This document shows, piece by piece, positions 1,531 to 48,755 of a stretch of 58,317 nucleotides of DNA. Numbering within the stretch: position 1 is the stretch's first letter; the number at the start of each line of letters is the position of its first letter. The notes beneath the pieces were generated by a model. The model saw only the letters and a list, made by a program, of their open reading frames with translations. It searched no databases and was not told the DNA's origin. The stretch lies in the NCBI GenBank assembly GCA_001938485.1, contig MQRK01246325.1:1-58317 (forward strand), in the 5' to 3' direction. A program made the translations under genes and the position numbers. The DNA is from Girardia tigrina (taxonomy: Eukaryota).

Positions 1531-1556
1531 AAATAACCGTCGTCATCAGGTCATAA
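1531..1556 (-). ncRNA. Truncated hammerhead ribozyme (5' half), Penelope-type
   Basis: Minus strand reads GAC-CTGATGA-C-GACGG-TTA, the same core and stem-II arm as the HHR at 36911; the GAAA half is missing. Confidence 0.45.
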
Positions 1557-1590
1557 AGAATTTTTGAATTTAAAATCTTCTCATATAAGC

Positions 1591-1762
1591 AAGCAGTGAT
1601 TATGTAATCAATGAGTAATTGCATCATCCAAACTCACTCAATTGTACACACTTTGTACATTAATCTTAGGTTTCTAGGATTAATGTGCAAACGGGTCTCT
1701 TGAAAACCTTATTGAGTGTGTTTAGATTAAATAATCAATCATTGAGTACATAATCCCTGCTT
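1591..1762. repeat. Imperfect long inverted repeat (fold-back)
   Basis: AAGCAGTGATTATGTAATCAATGA ... TCATTGAGTACATAATCCCTGCTT outer arms, inner TTGTACATTAATCTTAG/CTAGGATTAATGTGCAA. Confidence 0.6.
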
Positions 1763-3534: not shown

Positions 3535-5114
3535 TTAGGCTGGCAAGTATGAAATTTGTAGACATGTTTACGATAAAACACGCTGGTACTGCCATTGTAG
3601 CGCGCGTGCGGCCCTGGACATCTAAGGGCATCACAGACCTGTTGTTGCTCCATTTCATTTAGCTAAACGCTATTTATTCCTCTAAGAAGTCAGCATTTGC
3701 GATTTAACACAAATGTACTATTTAGCAGGTGAGAGTCTCGTTCGTTAACGGAATTAACCAGACAAATCGCTCCACCAACTAAGAACGGCCATGCACCACC
3801 ACCCACCGAATCAAGAAAGAGCTATCAATCTGTCAATCCTCACAGTGTCCGGACCGGGTGAGATTTCCCGTGGAGTATTTTAATATTAAAAATTTTAATA
3901 TTTTAATATTAATAAATTCAAATAGTTATAATTTGTCAATTGACATTTTTTCATCAGTTTTTTTGTTTGATTGCAACATATCTTGTCTATTGAATAAATC
4001 AATAAAAATAATTTAAATTATTTATAACTTGTCTCACTTAATAATCAGTATTTTAAAAAATGAAAAGCCAGAAATTTGAACTATTATGGAGAAAGAAATA
4101 CTACGTGGAACCTCAGCATCAGAAACTTTGCGAAACATCAATTGTGTATTCGGATACAATGCTACTTTTCAGCAACAGTCTTAAATTGGTTCAGGAAATC
4201 TGTAAAAAGTGATTCAATCTCAATAATTAATCTCGGAGTCACCCAAGAACGCAGGTAGAAAATGACGAACTAAAGGTAACTCTGGAGTCGGATCCATCAC
4301 AAATTGCAGATGCTTTATCGCTAATGTTTGCTGTTACAAAACAAACAATATTGAATCAATTGGCTCAAATTGGTAAAGTGCAAAAGTTACATGAGTTGAA
4401 TGAAAAGTAGAAACAAAAGTGTTTCAATGCTTTCTCGTTTTAAACGTGATCACAATTTTAATCGAATCGTTACTTAGGACGAAAAGTGAATCCAATATAA
4501 TTGAAAATATTCATCCAACTTGGTGGAGACAAATAAAGCACAAAAACACAGTTCAAAGCACAAGTCATCAAAAGAAGTTGATAATGAGTGTAAGGAAATT
4601 TGCCGCAGGTATAATCCATTATGATTTCATGAAACCTGATTCGTCAATCACAGCAGATGTATACTGTAACCAATTGGAAGATATAATGCTGAAACTCAAA
4701 GAAAAACAACTGCATTTGGTAAATAGGTCGATTTCCATCTTGCTTCACAACAAGGCACATGCTCTACTTAAGGCCGTGCCAAACAACAGGAGCTTGAGTT
4801 GGAACTCTTGTATCATTCCAGTAAAATATTCAGTAGACATAGTCCCCCCTGACTAAAATTTCTTTCTCAATTTGAACAACTTTTGAAAAGAAAAAATTCA
4901 ATTCCGAAGAATTTGTATGAATTGTCTTCCAGGAATTTGTAGAGTCTCGCTTACCAAACGTTTATTCAACTCGCCGCAACAAGCTGCCGCGCAAAAGACA
5001 AAGGTGTTTCGATAATATGAGCGCATACTTTGATGAATTACATAAACATTTGTACTGGTAAATTATCAATAATCTATGACTTCACTTCTACAAATTTTAT
5101 ACTTGATAACCGAA
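3535..5114 (+). mobile_element. Degenerate mariner element carrying an 18S rRNA insert
   Basis: TIRs TTAGGCTGGCAAGTATGAAATTTGTAGA / TCTACAAATTTTATACTTGATAACCGAA; broken transposase 4060-5035 (GIIHYDFMKP..SITADVYC.QL, ILLHNKA, YSVDIVPPD). Confidence 0.85.
3578..3876 (-). rRNA. 18S: 18S rRNA fragment (~300 nt, pseudogenic insertion)
   Basis: Reverse complement contains canonical SSU blocks GGTGGTGCATGGCCGTTCTTAGTTGGTGGAGCGATTTGTCTGGTTAATTCCG and ACAGGTCTGTGATGCCCTTAGATGT. Confidence 0.97.
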
Positions 5115-5326: not shown

Positions 5327-5875
5327 TATTAAGAACACCAACATGGCTTTTTAAACTTTTATTTTCATTACAATCAGAATTGTCTTTTGGACAACTCTCG
5401 GCAAAACTCTCATCATTCGACATCGTTCTAAATTGATAATTTTTTTATTAATGTTTGTTAATAAACAATTATTCGAACAAATTTTTCATTATTTTCTGAT
5501 TTTATTTTTAAAATTCAGATTTTGTAGTTTTNNNNNNNNNNNNNNNNNNNNNNNNNNNNNNNNNNNNNNNNNNNNNNNNNNNNNNNNNNNNNNNNNNNNN
5601 NNNNNNNNNNNNNNNNNNNNNNNNNNNNNNNNTTATTTTATTTAAATTTTAATATGAAGATTTGAAAAGATTTAATATTTTTAATGTTTTTTAAATATCT
5701 TATGTTGTACTTTAAAATATAAATTATATAAATTATACTCGAATAATTATTCATCGTGAACATCTAAAATATCAATTTTCCATCTGGGTGGAGAAACACA
5801 TTTCCAAATACTAAACTCAACATACAAAATTCAACAAACCAATTTCAACATACCAAATTTAAAATATTCCTCACA
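5327..5875 (-). repeat. Solo-LTR family A (TG...TA)
   Basis: Termini TATTAAGAAC...TTCCTCACA; exact 5-bp TSD AATAT; contains an N-gap at 5532-5632. Confidence 0.85.
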
Positions 5876-9937: not shown

Positions 9938-10442
9938 TGTGAGGAATATTTTAAATTTGGTATGTTGAATTTTGTATGTTGAGTTTAGTATTTGGAAATG
10001 TGTTTCTCCCACCCAGATGGAAAATTGATATTTTAGATGTTCACGATAAATAATTATTCGAGTGTAATTTACATTTTAAAGTACAACATAAGATATTTAA
10101 AAAACTTTAAAAATATCAAATCGTTTCAAATTTTAATATTAAAAATTTAAATAAAGTAAATAGTTTTAACTAAGTTTTAAATTAAATAAATATTCTTTCT
10201 TTCCATAAAATAATTTTTTAAATAAAATTAATATGTAAATAAAATTATTACTAAAATTAGAACTTTAAAAATAAAATCTGAAAATAATGAAAATTTGTTC
10301 GAATAATTGTTTATTAACAAACATTAACAAAAAGTTATCAATTTAGAACGATATCAAATTCTGAAAGCTTTTTGCTGTCCAAAAGACAATTCTAATTGTA
10401 TTGAAAATAAAATTTCAGAAACCCATATTGATGTTCTTAATA
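9938..10442 (+). repeat. Solo-LTR family A (TG...TA)
   Basis: TGTGAGGAATA...GTTCTTAATA; exact 5-bp TSD ATTAG. Confidence 0.9.
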
Positions 10443-20480: not shown

Positions 20481-21110
20481 TTAATATCCAATGAAATCTT
20501 GAAAAAAATTCGTTTTTATCAGTCAGAAAATGTATGAATATCAAAGTTTGAATTTCTTAGATCTTTATGAGCTAATTTTTTTAGGTAGATCATAAACATT
20601 ATTTGCAAAGTCTTAGTACTTAAATTTTATCATAATGTATGAAATATTTATCAGAAAGTTGAAAAAAAAACAGTAAATGTGTGGAATATAAACAAAAACA
20701 ATCATTTTTAAAATAAAGAAAACTCAACTCTTATAAATAAATTAAATTTTACCAATAAAATTCCGGTCGAATGTGTACTGCATCATTGTTGTTGTTTTTT
20801 TATTTGTTGTTATAAAAATTTATCTAAAATATTTTCTTTTTTTGATAGACAAGCCATTGGAAATTATATTTCAACGGTTTTACTATCTTCCCTAAATCAC
20901 TGATTATGAGCTTTTTATCTCTCGTAATAAGATGATTAATAAGATCACGTGATCCAAAAATCGAAGGTCATACAGGGCTCTCGACCAATTTGTTCAGAGT
21001 TTTAGACTAATTTTACGTAATAGATTACATAATCATCAATTTCCTATATATAATCGATAATATATCATAATCAATTATTTGATAATGACAGTAAAACAAA
21101 AAATTATGTA

Positions 21111-27871: not shown

Positions 27872-28075
27872 TGATGTTAAGCTTTGTTGACAGCATTTTC
27901 CTGGTGATTTGACGCTATTCTTGAACCATGTTCTTCAATATTTAATCAACCGTGTCAAAAATATCTTATGACTCACCTGAGTTTTCTTTATTAAAAACGG
28001 AGATGCCTCAACCTTTAAACTCTATGACCAAATATTAAAAAGTTATCAGATGTAGTGTCATGTAGGTTAGTTGAG
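27872..28075 (-). repeat. Near-identical inverted copy of 32739-32944
   Basis: Reverse complement matches apart from a 2-bp indel (by eye). Confidence 0.9.
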
Positions 28076-28509
28076 CTATTTTTTTTTTGAAGGAGCAATG
28101 ATTCCTCAATGATAACAATATACAAAACATAGTAAAGGATTAATTGAAAACAAATTTTTTAACAAATAACACTGTGTAACAATTTCTTTCCCGCAAAAAA
28201 ATTTCTATGTTCCTTGCATAACTTGAGTATGCTGATTACGAATATGATATTAGTTTTTGCACACCATCTAATTATTTGCCTCTATTTAATATTTTCTTTA
28301 TATGAGGGGTTAGTTTAAATTTAAGTTCGCCAAAATAGTTTATTATTTTTTTTAATTTGAAAATTTAAAAGAAATAAATTTAAAAAATTAAAATGTAGAG
28401 TAAAAATATGATAAAACAAATACTTATTTAAAATATGCTTACAGTAATAACAATTGATATATTTTAATATAAGTTATGAAATAAGTTTAAATAAATTTTA
28501 AAATAAATA

Positions 28510-29447
28510 CGAAGGGCGTTCCGAAAGTAAGTGGAAAAAAGGGAGACGACACCACAAGAAAGCATTTATTGAAGGAATACAATGTCATTCATCATCCTCA
28601 TCACTGTCAAACTTAGCATTATGCCTTCACAGTCCCAAAAGACTGTAATCATGACCTTCCCGGCAGATGGAACTGTCTTTGCCTTCAATGGTAGTTTCTC
28701 TCCAGTTTTGCACCACTGTTTCGATTGCTCCTTGGTCTCTGGTAAGTAGAAAGGAAGCCAAGTCTCATCCACAGTGATGATTCGCTTCCAGAACGATTCA
28801 CCAAGGTCCTCGCACATTTTCAGTAGCTGGCTGCATATGGTCACGCGGTTTCTTTTTTGCTCCACATTGAAAAGTCTTGGCACCCATCTGGCTGTCAGCT
28901 TCCTCATATTCAGGTGCTGCGTAACAATTGCATGTACACGTGTTGTAGATAGGCCTGTCATCTCCGCCAACTCGCGAATGGTAAGGCAGCGATTTGCATT
29001 GATGTTCTTTGACACTTTTTCCACATTTTCTACCGTGCTCGTCGTTGCTGGACGTCCACTCCTGTCCTCGTCGTCCAATGATTCACGTCCATTTTCGAAT
29101 TGATGAACCCAATTGTAGACGGCAGACTTTTTCAGGGCTCTTCCTTGAAACACATTTGATAAGCGGCACACAATGTCAGACACTGGAGTATCCTCTTTCC
29201 AAAGGAAAAAGATGATGGCACGCTGAGAACGTACTGCGTCTTCCATGTGTTAAACAAAAATGAAAACACTGCCTATGACAGTTTCCTCTATGCTGCTCAT
29301 ATGTTGCATGGACCGATGCCACTTTTGCTCGATTTCTATTGGCTGGTAAGTACATCACGTCACCACGCCATCTGTCCCTCTGTAAGATGCACACACACGC
29401 GCACACCCGCATATAAGTATTTCCACTTACTTTCGGAACGCCCCTCG
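28510..29447 (-). mobile_element. Internally deleted mariner (irritans-like TIR)
   Basis: 28-bp TIRs CGA(A/G)GGGCGTTCCGAAAGTAAGTGGAAA, TA TSD; empty site visible at 27247-27260. Confidence 0.95.
28566..29246 (-). CDS. Truncated mariner transposase (HTH domains plus first catalytic Asp), 226 aa open ORF
   Basis: RSGRP, ARWVPRL, RIITVDETW, KVMITVFWDCEG; the second and third Asp are deleted. Confidence 0.8.
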   Translation of the reverse strand: MEDAVRSQRAIIFFLWKEDTPVSDIVCRLSNVFQGRALKKSAVYNWVHQFENGRESLDDEDRSGRPATTSTVENVEKVSKNINANRCLTIRELAEMTGLSTTRVHAIVTQHLNMRKLTARWVPRLFNVEQKRNRVTICSQLLKMCEDLGESFWKRIITVDETWLPFYLPETKEQSKQWCKTGEKLPLKAKTVPSAGKVMITVFWDCEGIMLSLTVMRMMNDIVFLQ

Positions 29448-29734
29448 TAATTAACGGATTAATATTTTAAGAAATATTTTTTTTAATAAAAGGGTTTATT
29501 GTAAATTTAAATTAATTAGTTTTTATGATAAAGTTTCGTAAAATTCGGAGACGGAAAAAGAAAACCGATAAAAAAATTCAAAACCAGCATGTTGAAAAGT
29601 ATCAAAAAATTCTGAAAATCGTTTTCGGGAGAAACTTTCCAAAAATTTTGTTACACAGTGTAATTAGTAGTTTGTCAAGAAGGATATTTGCAAGAATGAT
29701 TACAATACATTCAAACATATATAAATTGCTAATA

Positions 29735-30290
29735 TCTTAACATTTTTTGCTCAGTTTTTTTGTTTGATTGCTACGTATCTTGGCTATTGAACACATCAAT
29801 AAAAATTAATTAAATTTTGGATAACTTGTTTCAAAAATCAGTATTTTAAAAATGGAAAATGCAGAAATTCGAACTATTATGAAGTGCAATTTCCTACGTA
29901 GAGTCTCCGCATCAGAAATCATGCAAAACTTTAATAGTATATTCTAAAATTGATTCAAGGAATTGGTGAAAGGTAATTTTCACCTCACTAATGAGTCTTG
30001 GGTCTTCTAAGAAAGCAGGTAAATAATGACGACTGAAGATCAACGTTGAGGCAGATACATTACAAAGAGCTCATGATCTATTACTTAAGTATGCTGTTAC
30101 AAAGCAAACAATCATTTGGCTGAAATTGACAAAGTGAAAAAAATTGATAATTTATTTGATAACTCCAACATGAGTTAAATGAAAAGCAGAAACAAAAGAG
30201 TTTAGATGCTTGCATCATGATGCTTTCTAGTTATAAATGCGATCCTTTTTGAATCGATTCATCTCTTTTGAGGAAAAAATGAATCAATAA
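29735..30290 (+). mobile_element. Mariner remnant, same family as 3535-5114
   Basis: Collinear similarity with 3940-4500 (e.g. AATCAGTATTTTAAAAA(A)TG..GAAATT.GAACTATTATG). Confidence 0.75.
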
Positions 30291-30854
30291 TAATATCTGT
30301 GTTAACCAACTGACAGAAAACTTAAACTAAGTTAAGATATGTTAAAATAAAATAAATAATAAATATGGAAAATTGGCAAAGTCAAAAAAGTTACAACAGT
30401 TATTCAATGGAACGATTGAAATAAATAAATGAAAATTTATGACAGCAATTTATTGTTCCCTTTGCGCTATCTCTCAAGAGAATCAAACCAGAGTTATAAA
30501 TGCCCTTTATAAACAGTAAATTTAACTCATTAATGAAGAAAAAATGTTTTCAATTTCCAACTACAGGTAGCTTTTTGATATTTCCAAAAATATATCTGAT
30601 ATTAATAAAGATTAGTGAGGTATTTTTTTCCTTAATCTCAAAAATGATCCAAAGTTGTATCAGTCCTACCTGGTGAATAACAAACCCCATCACAGGAATT
30701 CCGAAGTACACTCCAGAAAATTGTAGGAAAGTTAGAATATTTCATTAAAAGACTTTGATTCCAAAGCCATCTGTATTTTAGGAGAATCATCATGAATTGT
30801 AAAATGGAAGGGTTATTCCCTCTCATTAAAAATTATAAATATCGTTGAAAGATA

Positions 30855-32209
30855 TTGGGTTGTTGCATAAGTTTCCGCCGTTACATGAAACTATTTGTTC
30901 TACAAAGACTTTTTGATGTTTGGCGAAGTATTATATATCATTAGAAAGCCCGTGCGATCCTCTACAAGATTAAAGTAATCGTTTTTGCATATATTATTTT
31001 TTGTCTTTTTTTGGAACCGTCAAATGGATTGTTAAGTCGAAAAAAAATTGCATTTTCGACACCTCCTTCTTTTTGCCTTTAATCGAGGTCAAAAAGCGAG
31101 TAAAGCTACCAGAGATATTTGTGTCGTGTATGGAGAGGACGCTATAGCTGAAAGAACTGCTTGGGATTGGTTTGCCAGGTTCAGATATGATAATTTCGAC
31201 CTCAACGACGCTCCTCGTTCCGAAAGACCAGTCGAGATGGACGAGGACCAACTCGGGGATCTTTTGAAGGAAGATGGCCGCCAGACATGCAGAGAGTTGG
31301 CCGAAAAGATGAATTGTGATTTTGCGACAATTTCACGCCACCTACAGTTGATGGGTTTCACTCAAAAGCTTGGAGCTTGGGTTCCGCACGAACTCACCCA
31401 AAAGCAGAAGGATAAGTGGCTTTCCATTGCTGCTCAAAATCTCACTCGACACCAAGAAACCCGTGGCCACATGCAACGTTTCTTATACAGAATCGTCATT
31501 GGAGACGAGAAATGGTGTTTCTATGTGAATATGAAGCAAAGGAAAGAGTGGGTGAGTCCTGGAGAGAAGCCTAAGCCCAGGATCAAGAAAGATCTGCACC
31601 CGATGAAGATAATTATTTGCGTATGGTGGGATTGGGAAGGTCTAATCTACTTGGAAATTTTTGAAAGAACATGACAGTAGAAAAGAATCTCTATAAAGCC
31701 TAATTGCATCGAGTCAATGAGGAAATTCAACAAAAAAGACCGGATCGACAAGGCCAGATGATCCTCCTCCATGACAATGCTCAACAACACACCGCAAAAA
31801 CTGTCAAGACGGCACTCAAAGAGCTCGGTTTGGAGGTCCTTCAACATCCTCCCTATTCCCCAGACCTCGCCCCGACGGATTACCATGTCTTTCGCTGCCT
31901 TTCAAATGAGATGAGGGGTCTTAGCTTCGAAAATCAGGATCATCTTGAGAATTGGCTCAACAACTTCTTCGAGACTCTACCTAAGGATTTCTGGCGAAAT
32001 GGAATCAACAAACTGGTGGAAGATGGGAAGAAGTAGTGAACAATGAAGGAGAGTACATAATTGATTGAAGTGTTATTATTTTTGCAGTTAAAATTTTATG
32101 ATTTCATTAAATATATAATTAACTAAGTCATTATTTTGGTTGTTAAAATTCTTTGATTTCTTTGAAAATAAATGTTAAAAAAACGGCGGGAACTTATGCA
32201 ACAACCCAA
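30855..32209 (+). mobile_element. Full-length mariner (DD34D), transposase pseudogene ~31024-32068
   Basis: 28-bp TIRs TTGGGTTGTTGCATAAGTTYCCGCCGTT, TA TSD; WVPHEL, GDEKW, HDNA, HPPYSPDLAPTDY. Confidence 0.96.
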
Positions 32210-32252
32210 TACAATCAGTAAGATAAAGATAAAAGAATGTAACGAACATATA

Positions 32253-33700
32253 CGTGGTGCGTACAATAAGTACCCGATCTAAGGGGGGTTAGTCAGTTAA
32301 ACCTTTCAAAGACACTTGGTGTAACTTTAAAAAAGGAAGAAGTAAGGTCTAATGTTTAGAATACTTTGAAATTCTTGAAGAAAAGACCACGATCAGTAAC
32401 GAGGGACGACTTTAATAGGTTCAAACTTCAAAATACTCTAATGGTAATGGCCTACAAGTTGTTTTTATGGCTTATGTAACATATCAAAGTGTCCACAAAA
32501 GTAGAAAATCACCCATTGGATACCATACTAGTTATTTTTCTTCGGATAACAATTAAAAACCCTGGTGCCGAATGGCATTCAATTTATTCACGCCGTTCTC
32601 CAGTTATCAAGCACCAAATTGTAAATTTAGATTTTGAATTTATGTCATTGCGATGATTTTAGACGTTAAATATTGCGACGTTTTTAATTTCTGTGTATTG
32701 TAGAAGAAGACGTGCAATGAAATCTAAGATTTTTAGCACTCAACTAACCTACATGACACTACATCTCTGATAACTTTTTAATATTTGGTCATAGAGTTTA
32801 AAGGTTGAGGCATCTCCGTTTTTAATAAAGAAAACTCAGGTGAGTCATAAGATATTTTTGACACGGTTGATTAAATATTGAAGAACATGGTTCAAGAATA
32901 GCGTCAAATCACCAGGAAAATGCTGTCAACAAAGCTTAACATCAATGTTGGTACGGCCTACGCAAAATTGAAATCCATGGGTATAAGAAAACTGAGCTCC
33001 AGATTCTTACCCCTCTTTTTGACTGGTGAAATGATGCGAAACTGCTTGCAGTTCATTCAGAATAGCGTGAACCTCTGGAACTCACATGTTGACACCCCAC
33101 TCACTTTATGTTTGCTGGAAATAAAGCGCGAGTCAGTAGAGTGGAAACTGCTTGGAGAGAAACCATGTTTGAAGATTCAAACGAGAATAAGTCATGGACG
33201 AGTGATAATGCTTTCTGGGATCATAAAGATGTTATTCTCATGGATTTCGCAGATAAAGGTATCACCATAAATGCTGCATATTACAATCGACTTGTGTAAA
33301 CCACTAGAAGTAAAAAAATGGAAGTAGAACACACTACTATGGTTTCTCCATGACAGTGCGTTAGTGTTCACAGTAGTCATTTCTAGGATTACAATTGAAG
33401 GTGCTAGATTAGTGCTTGTTGATAATCCGCCGTACAGTCTAGAGTTGGTACCGATCGATTTTTACCTCTTCAGATATCTAAAGAAACATTTGAGAGGTAT
33501 CCAATTTGGATATGAAGACGATTTAAAGGTTGCCGTGGATGATTTCTTTGTCGAATGGCATATAAGTTTTGAAAAAGGCGTTTTCTGAATTTTTATTCGT
33601 TGACAGAAGTGTGTATAGCGAAATAGACATTATGTTGACAAATGATACCGAATAGGAAATACAATATTGCGAGTCATTATTATCCAGAAATCCTAACCCT
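32253..33700 (+). mobile_element. Heavily degenerate mariner (irritans-like)
   Basis: TA+CGTGGTGCGTACAATAAG left end; MGIRKLSSRFLP, FWDHKDVILMDF..KGITINAAYY, NPPYSLELVPIDFYLF. Confidence 0.8.
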
Positions 33701-35752: not shown

Positions 35753-36740
35753 TCTTTAATTTAAAACAAATTTAATTATTATCCAAAAATATTTTTTTCG
35801 GTTGTCACACAATATTAAATTATATCCATTTTTATTATTTATGATCTTAGCCCTCACATGGGTACCTGTATGATTAATAATTTTAATACCTGTCTACTCA
35901 AACAATAATTAAACTAAAACATCAAACATGTATAAAATACCGGTAGCGAACCGAGGGGGGGGGGGTAATTTTACCATAATAATAATTAAATCAAAGAATT
36001 TTTTGTTTATCAATACTTTGATGTACTTGTAAACATATACCAAAAGGGTCCATCAGACATCTACTGAAACCCCTACATGGTCAAACTGACGAAATCTCTA
36101 TCTCAGAAAAGTACCTGAACTCATTTTTTAAAACAACGTATCTCTACTCTGTCCTAAGATCCATTTGGTTTATATTTTTGATCTGATGCATATGAGGCAC
36201 AAGATTCTTTAAATAAGAACTATGTCGGGCATATTTACAGGTTGGTTTTAGTTTTTGTAAAAAGGAGGACTCATTAATAGATCAAACAGTTTATTTAATG
36301 TTCAATACACAAAAAATGATGATTAATAAAATTTTAGGTATGTTATATTTTTTTATATTTATTTATTCATTATTAAGAACACCAACATTGACTTTCAAAC
36401 TTTTATTTTCAATACAATCAGAATTGTCTTTTGGACCACTCTCAGCAAAACTCTCGTCATTCGACATCGTTCTAAATTGATAATTTTTTATTAATGTTTG
36501 TTAATAAACAATTATTCGAACAAATTTTTCATTATTTTCAGATTTTATTTTTAAAGTTCAAATTTTGTAATTTTAGTAATAATTTTATTTACATATTAAT
36601 TTTATTTAAAAATTATTTTATGTAAAGAAAAAACATTTATTTAATTTAAATCTTAGTTAAAAGTTATTTTACAAATAAACTTGAAAAAAGATGGTAATTT
36701 TTTACTATAAACAAATAAACGCCATTTAAAAATATATTTT

Positions 36741-36783
36741 AGGATAATATATTTCGACGGTTTAACCGTCATCATCAGATCAC
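36741..36783 (-). ncRNA. Minimal type-I hammerhead ribozyme
   Basis: Reverse complement: GAT-CTGATGA-T-GACGG-TTAAA-CCGTC-GAAA-TATA-TT-ATC. Confidence 0.85.
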
Positions 36784-36910
36784 TGATTATGTTCTTTTTT
36801 ATTGTTTTTATATAAGAAATGAATGATTATGTAATCACTTACGTAATCACTTATGTAATCACTTATCATTCATTTCTTATATAAAATTTCAATAAAAAAG
36901 AACATAATCA

Positions 36911-36953
36911 GTGATCTGATGATGACGGTTAAGCCGTCGAAATATATTATCCT
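36911..36953 (+). ncRNA. Minimal type-I hammerhead ribozyme
   Basis: GAT-CTGATGA-T-GACGG-TTAAG-CCGTC-GAAA-TATA-TT-ATC: catalytic boxes, 5-bp stem II, palindromic stem-III loop. Confidence 0.85.
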
Positions 36954-37639
36954 AAAATATATTTTTAAATGGCGTTTATTTGTTTATAAAAGTTATTTTA
37001 CTTTATTTAAATTTTTAATATGAAAATTTGAAACGATTTGATATTTTTAAAGTTTTTTAAATATCTTATGCTGTACTTTAAAATGCAAATTATGCTCGTA
37101 TAACGAATATCATATTCATAACGAACATCAAAAATACCAATTTTCCATCTGGGTGGGAGAAACACATTTCCAAATACTAAACTCAACAAACAAAATTCAA
37201 CAAACCAATTTCAACATACCAAATTTAAAATATTCCTCACATTCATATCGCTTGAAAATAAATATACTTAAAGTATTAATAGTGTTGAATCTTCTCTCAT
37301 CGCATTTATGAGAATAACTCCCTTAAATTAGACGGGATTAAAACATGGTTGAAAAGTTGAGCACCAAACCTTCCCGATGATTGATAAAATTTGGTTGAAA
37401 ATTAAAATTTGGGGTGAAAATTTGGCTGACCCCCATCGATAACCTTTATAACTAAAAGATGAGACCAAGTAATCAAGAAAAATGGATAATAGATTGATTA
37501 TTAGAATATATATAAATAACAAAAATAATATAGATTTAGTATGCTTTTAAATAATAATAATAAAAATAAATTATGCAAAGTATTGTGGTTTAGGTTAATG
37601 GGAATTGTATATTTTTATCTTTATTTAATAATTTTATTA

Positions 37640-38377: not shown

Positions 38378-38416
38378 AAACACTGATGATGGAAAATATA
38401 TTCCGAAACATGTATA
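38378..38416 (+). ncRNA. Minimal hammerhead ribozyme next to a PLE remnant (stem I decayed)
   Basis: CTGATGA-T-GGAA-AATATA-TTCC-GAAA-CATG-TA. Confidence 0.7.
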
Positions 38417-40988: not shown

Positions 40989-42104
40989 TTTCTGCAAAAG
41001 CCACTGTTTAATTTCTGGTTATGTATGACATATTAATTTTTTGGTTTTGAAGAATAGATAAAAAACATAAGACCGAAACAAACCATAGGTTAAACCAGAT
41101 TTGAGAATAGGGAGCTAGAAAGTAATCATCTTGTCCCAACGAAACATGAGGAAATCAAAATATTTTTAAGTAAATTCAGGGGTCTTTAATGTTCATACAA
41201 ACTGAAACAAGTGATGTGTATAGAAGCTGGGAAAGTTTAATTATTTTCTTCTTTCTTTTACGATCTTTTCTTTTGTCCTTCAATTTTAAAATATCTTTCT
41301 CTTTATTTTTTTCAAGTTTCAAAATTTAGTTTAATTTTAAATTATTTTATGATTTTAAATTTTAGAATATTTTATTTAATTAACATTGTATTTTTTTAAA
41401 TCAATAAAAATAAAATTACAAAAAATGTAATACATATAATTTGATATAATCTTTCTTAAAAAAACATTAATTATTTTAATTATTTTCTATTAATAAATTT
41501 AATTTTTTTTAAATTAATAATTTATTTTATTTATTTATTTTTTATAATTCATAAAAACTTTATTATAATTTCGTTGATTTATGATGGTCGCATTATTTCA
41601 ATAATTTATTATTAAGTTTTGGAATATTCAAAAAAGGATTTAAGATTTTTTTCATCAATAATAGTAAATTTGAATTTCAAAAATTATTTTAATAATATTA
41701 ATAATACGGAAAATTGTTTTTATGAATATTATTTTGTTTGTAATAAAAAAATCTAAAATAATTCTCACTTTTTTCTTTTTTTCTTAAATAGAAAACGAAT
41801 TTATTTTATTTTTGCGGTAGATTTCTTTGATATTTTTTATTTCTATTTTTTATTATATTTTTTTGTAATAATAATTCTATATTTTAAATTATTATAATAC
41901 ATTGGTGATTTCATTAATTTTTTTCAAATGAATTTTATATTTTTTCTGATTTTTTTAAAGTATTTATGTAAGGATATGTTAGTTTTTTTAGATGGATTTA
42001 CTACCTTATTAAAATAAATTGATATTTTATTACTTATAAATCATTCTTCTCAAAATTGAGAAATAATTTATTAGCAACTTATGAAAACGTAAAATATTTT
42101 AAAA

Positions 42105-42302
42105 AACGCCATTTTAAGATAAAATCTTTTAAATTTCGTAGGAATATCCGTCCTCATCGTAAAAAAGTGTGAACGTTAAACAGTGATTGCATTACTACTT
42201 GTATAATCATCAATTAAACATGATCAGAAGTGCCCGGTGATGACGGATATTCCGTCGAAATATATTGCACCAATATAAGATTTTATTTTAAAATAGCGTT
42301 TT
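42105..42302. mobile_element. Decayed second palindromic double-hammerhead element
   Basis: Arms AAACGCCATTTTAAGATAAAATCTT / AAGATTTTATTTTAAAATAGCGTTT; plus-strand GTGC-CCGGTGA-T-GACGG-ATATT-CCGTC-GAAA-TATA-TT-GCAC; minus-strand CGATGA-G-GACGG-ATATT-CCTAC-GAAA. Confidence 0.7.
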
Positions 42303-42487
42303 TTAATTTTCAAAAAGAAATTGAAGTTATTTTTTAAATTTATCAGTAAAATTTATTGTTATCAGTTTGAAGGATCAAGTAAGAAACCTTTTCAAATATG
42401 ACCTTTCATGGTGAAAAGAAACGATGTACTGGAAATCTCAATTCTTCTAAACAACATTCCATAAATGTACACAATTTACAAAATTAT

Positions 42488-46641: not shown

Positions 46642-47746
46642 GTGATGATTGAATAATTAAACTTTAAAATCTTCAATACTGTCAAATCTTTTGTCTTGTA
46701 TCAAAAATAATATTGAATAAAATTGAAAAAAGTCCCAAAATATCAATTGAAAATGTTTCAATGAAAAAGATAATTTCTTATTGATCAAACAATAAAAACT
46801 CAGAAATGTAAATAATATTTATATTTATAAAATCATTTTAACTAAATGTTTGAAGGCGAAGGAGTATTTTCTAGAGTAACTGTACGATAAACTTTTGAAT
46901 GCCCTGCAAAAAACATAATTTTAATAGAAAAGGTATTTAACATTGCTGTGCGTAAAGTATTTTTAAAGGATTTAAAAATAATTAAAACTTGCTTTTAAAA
47001 ATTTATTTAAATATTTTACAAATATTCATCTTTTTCCAATTAACCCTCGAATACTTAACTAAAAAAATGAAATCATAAACTAATATGAGAAGAATATGTC
47101 AACGAACCACTTGTTTGCGTTGTGATTTCTTTTGACTCATACTTGAGCCCATTTGTAAATTAAATAGATAAATTAAATAAAAAATGTTAAAAATTAAGTA
47201 AATACAGTTTTAAATAATTAATTAAAAAAAGTAATTACAAGTAAAATTGAATAAAGTAATTAAAGTATATTAAATTAAATTAATATATATTGTGATTAAA
47301 CCATCAATTTCATTTGGTTTCGTGATGGAGGTTCAATTATTAGTGCAGTATGATGTTTTGTTGTTTTTGATTCAAATCGATTAATTGCGATTAATTGACT
47401 TAAATGAAGTTCTATGTCCATTTGAATGGACCAATAATTGTTATGAAATTGATAAATCTGTGTGTGTGTGTGGATTGAGTCCAATATCGATTATGTAATG
47501 TGATATGTATGCTTGTTATGATATCGTGTGTGTGGCTTTGTATAATTGAATATAATTGCGTGTGTGTGTCTAATGGGAAAGTTGAAAAAACAAAAGATAT
47601 GCCATTTTCAGAATTAAAAAATAAACAATTTGTGAAAATAATGACAAAATAAAAATTGTTTAAATCGATTAATTTTAATTAAATAAATTTTTCGAGAATT
47701 TGATATTGATGATTATGTTTGATTTAAATAATTATCAATTAAAAAA

Positions 47747-48085
47747 ATGATCGATTTCAAATTAATTCGTGAAAATGGAGAAAATGAAAATATTTTTAGA
47801 TATTCAAATTTGAAAATAAAGTTATGGTTTTCTGCGGGTCGATTGTATCCATATTTCTATGTATCCCATGACAAAAAAACTGAAAAAAATGATTATATAA
47901 AAGCTGATGATTTTAAAAAGTCTCTTCACACTAACATTTCTTATGTGTATCGTAATATTGATCTATACAAAGAAGCATTTGAAAACGAGGATTTCAAATA
48001 TTTTGAAAAGCTAATTGATGTTTATAAATTTGATGATATATCGTTTGAAAATTATTACGTTTGTAGAACTGAAATGGAACGTATA
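47747..48085 (+). pseudogene. HAT1: Histone acetyltransferase type B catalytic subunit N-terminal fragment, intronless and truncated
   Basis: IDFKLIRE / GENENIFRYSNLKIKLWFSAGRLYPYFYVSHDKK..IKADD / EDFKYFEKLIDVY resembles the Hat1_N consensus (FG.E.IFGYK.LKI.L...AG.L......Y..K....ADD...FKPFG.L...Y). Confidence 0.75.
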
Positions 48086-48755
48086 CATTGTAAATTATTT
48101 TGTGTGATATTGAGAACTTTTCTTAATTTGATTCTTTTGAGCACAAACCAAATACTTCCACAACTTGCAAAATATAATCTAAAATTAAAATTGACATCTT
48201 CTCTAAATCAAATCTTTTTCTCACGATTCTGTTGCTTATTTGACTTTAAAACTCATTTATGACAGACAACTTGTGTCGTTTTGTTTATCAAATCTTGATA
48301 ATTTGTTGCAACTGTGTATGAGAAAATTCAGAAAAAGACTTGCCAATAATAAAAACCGAAAAGCCTCTGCTGAGATACAACACCACTATTCGATTAAATT
48401 ACACCGAGAATAAAACTTAGCACACACGGCAAATGTATGTACTATTCATTACAATAGTTGTCAATTATCCCCAGAAATACCAACTTTACAGTCCTCTTTT
48501 GCTCTCAGCTTTGTTTTGCATGTTTGCTGTCGACAACCTTTGAACACATGTCACAACGAATGTAGGTTTTCCTCTTTATTCCATTTTTATATTAATTTAG
48601 AAGCAAAAACCATTGACAATCTTCGAGACTTCATTTAAACTTGATTTAACAACAAATAAAGACAATGACTACCATGACGTCACAAAACGCGATAAATAAG
48701 TAAACCAGAAACAGTAACAGCAGCCCTTAACACAAATAAACTGATACATAAAAAT

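Follow-up and report, generated by a model that had tools for sequence, protein, structure and literature searches.

A short insert with two outward-pointing hammerhead motifs in Girardia tigrina is most likely a 5'-inverted Penelope-like element product

Introduction

In a 58,317-nt stretch of the Girardia tigrina genome (contig MQRK01246325.1, assembly GCA_001938485.1; hereafter the window), an LTR-like repeat is interrupted by a short fold-back insert that carries one hammerhead ribozyme motif on each strand. The question raised by this locus is what kind of element leaves such a structure. An initial annotation offered two alternatives, an extreme 5'-inverted insertion of a Penelope-like element (PLE) or an independently mobile, retrozyme-like fold-back RNA, and proposed in addition that transcripts of the insert could switch between self-cleavage and long double-stranded RNA. 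The evidence set out below indicates that the insert very probably consists of two short back-to-back 3'-end copies from an abundant family of repeats, most likely PLEs, left as the dead-end product of a single event.

Results and discussion

Anatomy of the insert and its host repeat

The insert, its target-site duplication (TSD), the arms, the outward hammerheads and the central 12-mers described in the initial annotation were all found in the letters of the window (Table 1). The insert spans 314 bp (36673-36986) and is flanked by two copies of a 15-mer that occurs nowhere else in the window. The inverted arms, described as being of about 120 bp, measure 122 and 124 nt and are 97% alike, differing by two substitutions and one 2-nt indel. 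Folding of the insert yields a single hairpin (-180.8 kcal/mol, z -30.8), and none of 100 shuffled sequences was equally stable; weak matches to Rfam miRNA-precursor models, far below the gathering scores, reflect this hairpin and were set aside. The insert had been called self-complementary, which is correct for its arms but not for its whole length, since the left arm extends 33 nt further than the right, an asymmetry that had been missed.

We infer that the host repeat, about 540 bp long without the insert and with no internal region seen, is a solo LTR. Two sibling repeats (5327-5875 and 9938-10442) likewise have TG..TA ends, and each has its own 5-bp TSD. The 15-mer had been described as single-copy in the sibling LTR; this is true of the sibling near 10 kb, where it has a slightly different 13-nt form, but the sibling near 5.3 kb has an N gap at this position. 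The empty junction is also visible as loose contig ends, in 55 contigs of sequencing run X1 and 32 of run X2. A TSD with an empty site, as found here, is a feature of PLE insertions.

Table 1. Positions of the features of the insert and its host repeat in the window
Feature	Position	Strand	Remarks
Host solo-LTR-like repeat (about 540 bp minus insert)	36371..37241	-	TG..TA ends; 5-bp TSD 36366-36370 and 37242-37246
15-bp TSD, left copy	36658..36672	+	Single copy in the ~10-kb sibling and in empty-site contigs
One-sided extension of 33 nt, PLE 'tail' (3' end of main copy)	36673..36705	-	Absent from right arm
Left arm: 3' end of 5'-truncated main copy (pLTR)	36706..36827	-	122 nt
Minimal type-I hammerhead	36740..36784	-	C3 at 36778; predicted cut between 36746 and 36745
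TATA box (36814-36807) and TCAGT initiator-like motif	36782..36814	-	Predicted +1 at 36784; motif only
Centre: three 12-mers, each with TTAYGTAA	36827..36864	.	36827-36846 family sequence; 36847-36864 locus-specific re-copy at inversion junction
Right arm: inverted 5'-truncated copy, no tail	36865..36988	+	124 nt; 2-nt overlap with TSD
TATA box (36878-36885) and TCAGT initiator-like motif	36878..36912	+	Predicted +1 at 36910; motif only
Second minimal hammerhead	36910..36954	+	C3 at 36916; predicted cut between 36948 and 36949
15-bp TSD, right copy	36987..37001	+

Hammerhead motifs

Each arm contains CUGAUGA, one bulged U, a 5-bp stem II, GAAA, a palindromic UAUA (AUAUAU), the triplet AUU and a 3-bp stem I, and the two motifs point outward, one per strand, as originally described. 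The conserved core is present together with stems I-III, and the label of complete minimal hammerheads is justified for the core, stem II and the palindromic stem III; stem I, in contrast, amounts to 3 bp followed by a U-C mismatch and is missing from the predicted folds. None of the Rfam hammerhead models, a check that had been proposed for these motifs, matches even at E up to 10. Minimal PLE hammerheads have a bulge between positions 9 and 10.1 and a palindromic stem III, and they also occur as dual motifs, one on each strand, separated by 100-700 bp (PMC4209133). The motifs of the insert have in common with the metazoan examples the core, the bulged nucleotide after A9, G10.1-C11.1, the palindromic stem III and a short stem I, whereas their stem II is shorter (5 bp compared to 7-8 bp) and their stem I is reduced to just 3 bp (PMC4209133). 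The distance between the opposite-strand motifs is 138 nt here and 100-700 bp in the PLE hammerheads of Schistosoma mansoni (PMC4209133).

Among contigs of the parent family (see below), variants at a frequency of at least 2% affect none of the 19 core and stem III positions but 13 of the 26 remaining motif positions (Fisher p = 1.6e-4), which indicates that the hammerhead motif is under constraint in that family. The stem II variants sit at paired positions, for which phasing is impossible. Part of the constraint may be coding in origin. The A9-U-G10.1 of the minus-strand hammerhead forms an ATG (36772-36770) whose frame runs through to the end of the tail, and the ORF of PAc starts at stem II (PMC11167929). 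A search with the 34-residue frame opened by this ATG returned no protein homologue (0 hits). A further minimal hammerhead-like motif, belonging to another family, lies at 38383-38415 (plus strand; GAAA, palindromic CATG loop), and its core ATG likewise opens a stop-free frame, of 59 codons.

The motif is followed by a second copy of the stem III palindrome, which was considered as a substrate in cis and rejected from reading of the sequence, because no stem I partner lies behind it. In addition, positions 36729-36755 (minus strand) and their mirror in the right arm are predicted to form a 10-bp hairpin between the GAAA/stem III strand and a near-copy downstream of it, which would lock the ribozyme. 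The downstream strand of this hairpin has no variants at 2% in the family, its loop is variable, and the related copy near 42 kb can adopt a comparable hairpin.

Parent family and origin of the centre

One arm and the centre were compared with contigs of four of the 24 runs listed (X1, X2, X7 and X9). The two runs of the host species yielded 6954 (X1) and 4694 (X2) contigs matching the stretch, the host LTR part included. As annotated, three 12-mers occupy the centre (starts at 36827, 36839 and 36851). At position 36846, however, 102 contigs of X1 and 58 of X2, along with one each in X7 and X9, depart into another, conserved sequence, which by eye resembles the upstream part of a related copy near 21 kb in the window. 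The X7 and X9 contigs extend past this point by about 500 and 800 letters, respectively. In X1, depth drops from 1e5-1e6 on the arm to a flat 68 over 36854-36872, where contig depth is not a copy number; X1 is possibly the source of the window itself, and copies sharing the centre were counted through contig depth only. The departures at 36846 and the drop in depth indicate that the family sequence continues to 36846 and that 36847-36864 is a local re-copy. The evidence that local filler at the junction makes up about half of the 12-mer centre is thus strong but indirect. The ends of family contigs fall into two classes, 36673-36675 and 36706-36712, which bound the tail, and three strand-change joints occur in the contigs, at three different places.

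Several other patterns in the runs were not used. The missing depth over the centre in X2, X7 and X9 was not counted, as a hole proves nothing, and a 97%-identical contig in the RNA run X7 was rejected as proof of transcription. Horizontal transfer, suggested by the many runs of other organisms that hold 26% of the words, was not adopted: two such runs gave 11 and 2 contigs, numbers that low-level carry-over of an abundant repeat would also produce. The exact family pattern was found in none of the metagenome contigs and none of the viral contigs (0 and 0).

The window contains two other, older divergent pairs (at about 20.9-21.1 kb and 42.1-42.3 kb) with different centres and with core spacings of about 184 nt and 76 nt, respectively, versus 138 nt in the main insert. 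The first (20850-21100) belongs to the same family and is decayed; its arms are separated by about 75 nt that are likely an ORF end, and its right arm is truncated in stem II. The second (42095-42350) is a decayed pair of a related subfamily whose plus arm has a tail-like extension; the end of this tail adjoins GTAAAAT, as in the main insert, which may reflect chance or a target preference. A single family-related pLTR fragment at 1534-1620 (minus strand) stops within stem II and is enclosed by a decayed copy of the host LTR-like repeat.

The same architecture in unrelated metagenome DNA

A looser pattern for the same hammerhead type matched at least 110 metagenome stretches (103 after removal of 7 duplicates); five of the loci carry bacterial genes and look like chance matches, and these were kept in the counts. 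Among the matches listed, the stems outside the pattern pair far above chance, with stem I formed in 81 of 102 (control mean 20) and stem II in 68 of 102 (control mean 6). Inverted, divergent arms are present in 38 of the 82 unique loci with 300 nt of upstream room among the matches listed, and convergent pairs within 340 nt were seen in none of 78 listed matches before de-duplication. Flanks were long enough for a TSD test at 29 of the 42 listed loci with arms. A TSD of 9-13 nt was found at 14 of these listed loci, 13 of which also have a one-sided tail of 25-42 nt, and a TSD of at least 9 nt is absent from the other 15; mismatched flank pairs used as a control gave a TSD in 4 of 812 cases and a TSD with a tail in 1 of 812. 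The units among the matches listed are 208-447 bp long overall, the length differing from one unit to the next. The recurrence of inverted arms, TSD and one-sided tail in unrelated DNA indicates that the architecture of the insert is a common product of this class of element.

Individual metagenome loci add further observations. In four of them (L045, L053, L100 and L110), the inversion point lies 5-26 nt from the ribozyme core, resulting in near-perfect palindromes centred on the hammerhead. At L031, which represents another family, the same hammerhead type lies 92 nt behind the end of an ORF whose homologues carry GIY-YIG, PF26215 and reverse transcriptase (RT) domains, the GIY-YIG Pfam match of the ORF itself being weak (18.8 versus a curated cut-off of 22.6 bits). 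The RT near the L065 hammerhead presumably belongs to the LINE type, as judged by eye from its motifs, and since it also lies on the opposite strand it was not used as evidence for a PLE link.

Comparison with known elements

PLE insertions are described as having a 30-40-bp tail at one end and an inverted 5'-truncated copy beside the 5' end (PMC8557442; PMC3846280; PMC8969392), and in the endonuclease-positive units (Penelope/Poseidon, Neptune, Perere) these accompany a pLTR (PMC8557442; PMC3846280). The insert has the inverted 5'-truncated copy next to the 5' end, the tail at one end only (33 nt) and the minimal hammerhead in the pLTR, and further shares with these units the outward orientation of the inverted 3' ends, a TSD and a TATA box with an initiator-like motif; the ATG in its hammerhead may correspond to the ORF start that such units have inside the pLTR. 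Unlike them, both of its copies are too short for any coding body and its family was matched to no named element; its TSD, at 15 bp, is also longer than the 8-10 bp of A. vaga PLEs (PMC3846280). The one-sided tail, the inverted truncated copy, the TSD and the metagenome parallels together support the first of the two alternatives, an extreme 5'-inverted PLE insertion.

No gene for the telomerase-like RT and GIY-YIG endonuclease that PLE families encode was recovered for this family. Among the 149 of 195 window ORFs that were searched (at least 55 aa, with 46 mostly overlapping frames left out), none carries an RT or GIY-YIG domain, and the only domains found are those of DNA transposases and HAT1. 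The upstream frame of the 21-kb copy ends in LIRSRDPKIEGHTGLSTNLFRVLD-stop, with LIR..P.I located 24 residues before the stop, in the register of the PLE C-terminus P0002 (by eye only); BLASTP gave no alignment of this 24-residue frame end with L031. The rest of the window is filled with transposons, apart from a host gene piece encoding the N-terminal domain of the histone acetyltransferase HAT1 (47732-48259, plus strand). Other features include an isolated fragment of eukaryotic small-subunit rRNA (3610-3883, minus strand) and, at 27872-32944, perfect 179-bp inverted repeats that lie 4.7 kb apart around nested mariner transposase ORFs.

Metazoan non-LTR retrozymes resemble the insert in size (170-400 nt), type-I hammerhead, long TSD and PLE link, but they are built of same-strand head-to-tail repeats (PMC7229834; bioRxiv 10.64898/2026.07.22.740005). 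Expression as linear and circular RNA of unit length is a further retrozyme feature. The insert contains no head-to-tail tandem units with same-strand hammerheads; its ribozymes lie on opposite strands, and therefore no unit-length RNA can be cut from it. It is nevertheless conceivable that the whole fold-back is a non-autonomous element, retrozyme-like or MITE-like, which is included whole in read-through transcripts and mobilised again as one unit by a PLE enzyme, considering that pLTRs alone can mobilise an intervening sequence in trans (PMC3846280) and that the fold-back ends in an intact tail and has nearly identical arms. This explanation is very unlikely, as the centre is found at one-contig depth in X1 where the arms are orders of magnitude deeper, family contigs leave the centre halfway, the other divergent pairs have other centres, lengths vary within a single metagenome family (208-436 bp among the matches listed), and the head-to-tail repeat of non-LTR retrozymes (PMC7229834) is missing. 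Across the contigs and the window, many copies with common ends and a common centre, the feature of a mobile fold-back, were not observed. According to the initial annotation itself, genomic copies that differ in their inversion breakpoints would be one-off inversion products rather than a mobile family, and because the related copies have neither centre nor breakpoint in common, the independently mobile RNA fails by that standard.

A probable single two-ended insertion event

The reading of the insert as a PLE product suggests the following sequence of events. The endonuclease/reverse transcriptase of the PLE would cleave the two strands of an AT-rich target at positions about 15 bp apart, and cDNA synthesis would be primed from both target ends, one cDNA beginning at a distal start site (arm and 33-nt tail) and the other at a proximal site (no tail). 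Both cDNAs would stop after about 120-170 nt, inside the pLTR, and be joined head to head; an 18-nt slipped re-copy of local sequence would create the third 12-mer, and gap filling would yield the TSD. In vitro, the tail is what separates two RT start sites, and cutting and extension take place on both strands of the target (PMC11167929). The hammerheads would then be inherited parts of the pLTR, under selection in the parent family.

Alternatively, the palindrome could have been made at the DNA level, by two separate insertions of the family or by fold-back repair after insertion, rather than in one retrotransposition event. A slipped junction filler would be typical of end-joining repair, and the cited texts on PLEs show no mechanism for the inversion; on the other hand, a single TSD frames both arms, the inverted arm stops exactly at the short family end, and the combination of tail and TSD recurs in 13 of 29 unrelated loci among the matches listed, never in convergent orientation, which together make a DNA-level origin highly improbable. 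The insert is thus best regarded as a generic 5'-inverted PLE product, of an architecture already described in print: the openly readable main texts on such hammerhead pairs describe the structure, and neither a count nor a MITE-like description was found in them.

RNA behaviour and possible promoter activity

The proposed switch between self-cleavage and long double-stranded RNA in read-through transcripts is extremely improbable. The high stability of the hairpin and the conservation of the ribozyme core across the family speak for it, but the pairing probability of stems I and II is 0 in the full RNA of both strands as well as in all growing prefixes tested. Owing to the outward orientation of the ribozymes, the antisense arm precedes the ribozyme in read-through RNA of either strand, so that the ribozyme is paired as it emerges and the RNA is predicted to be plain long double-stranded RNA, a hairpin of about 120 bp in which the ribozyme and the RT-loading region would both be locked. 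Moreover, activity of the ribozyme depends on dimer formation, and in folding predictions alternative folds (-26 to -34 kcal/mol) outcompete the active trans-dimer (-12 kcal/mol) even when the antisense arm is absent. This instability is in line with the requirement of the PAc ribozyme for protein (PMC11167929), and minimal PLE hammerheads tested in vitro showed no monomer cleavage and low dimer cleavage (PMC4209133).

In each arm, a TCAGT initiator-like motif also lies just ahead of stem I, with a TATA box at -30 or -32. The TATA-initiator pattern, which was set after viewing the sequence, has 10 matches in the window, three of them in the insert, compared to 0.025 per 314 nt in shuffled sequences. 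TATA and Inr-like motifs have been reported in a pLTR, where bidirectionality was raised (PMC3846280), and the TTAYGTAA of the centre corresponds to the mammalian definition of the D-box motif (PMC6687812). As judged from these motifs, divergent promoter activity of the arms is possible. A more specific proposal, which is unlikely, is that head-to-head truncation created a compact two-way promoter around the TTAYGTAA site (D-box-type bZIP) tripled by the junction slip, whose outward, antisense-free transcripts, starting a few bases ahead of the hammerhead, could pair through the palindromic stem III into a trans-dimer and cleave one another.

Implications

These findings indicate that the insert is very probably an ordinary by-product, and one that provides a clean, datable example of two-ended PLE insertion, located within a solo LTR whose empty site is also seen. 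They also serve as a warning that short palindromes with paired hammerheads resemble new mobile RNAs in scans of single windows. The locus would have greater importance only with activity of the retained back-to-back promoters, or with proof that precisely this fold-back has multiplied. If the two-way promoter were real, PLE-rich genomes would hold very many outward-firing cassettes, nearly half of such hammerhead loci being divergent pairs, and the U of the element's start codon would account for the conserved bulge after A9.
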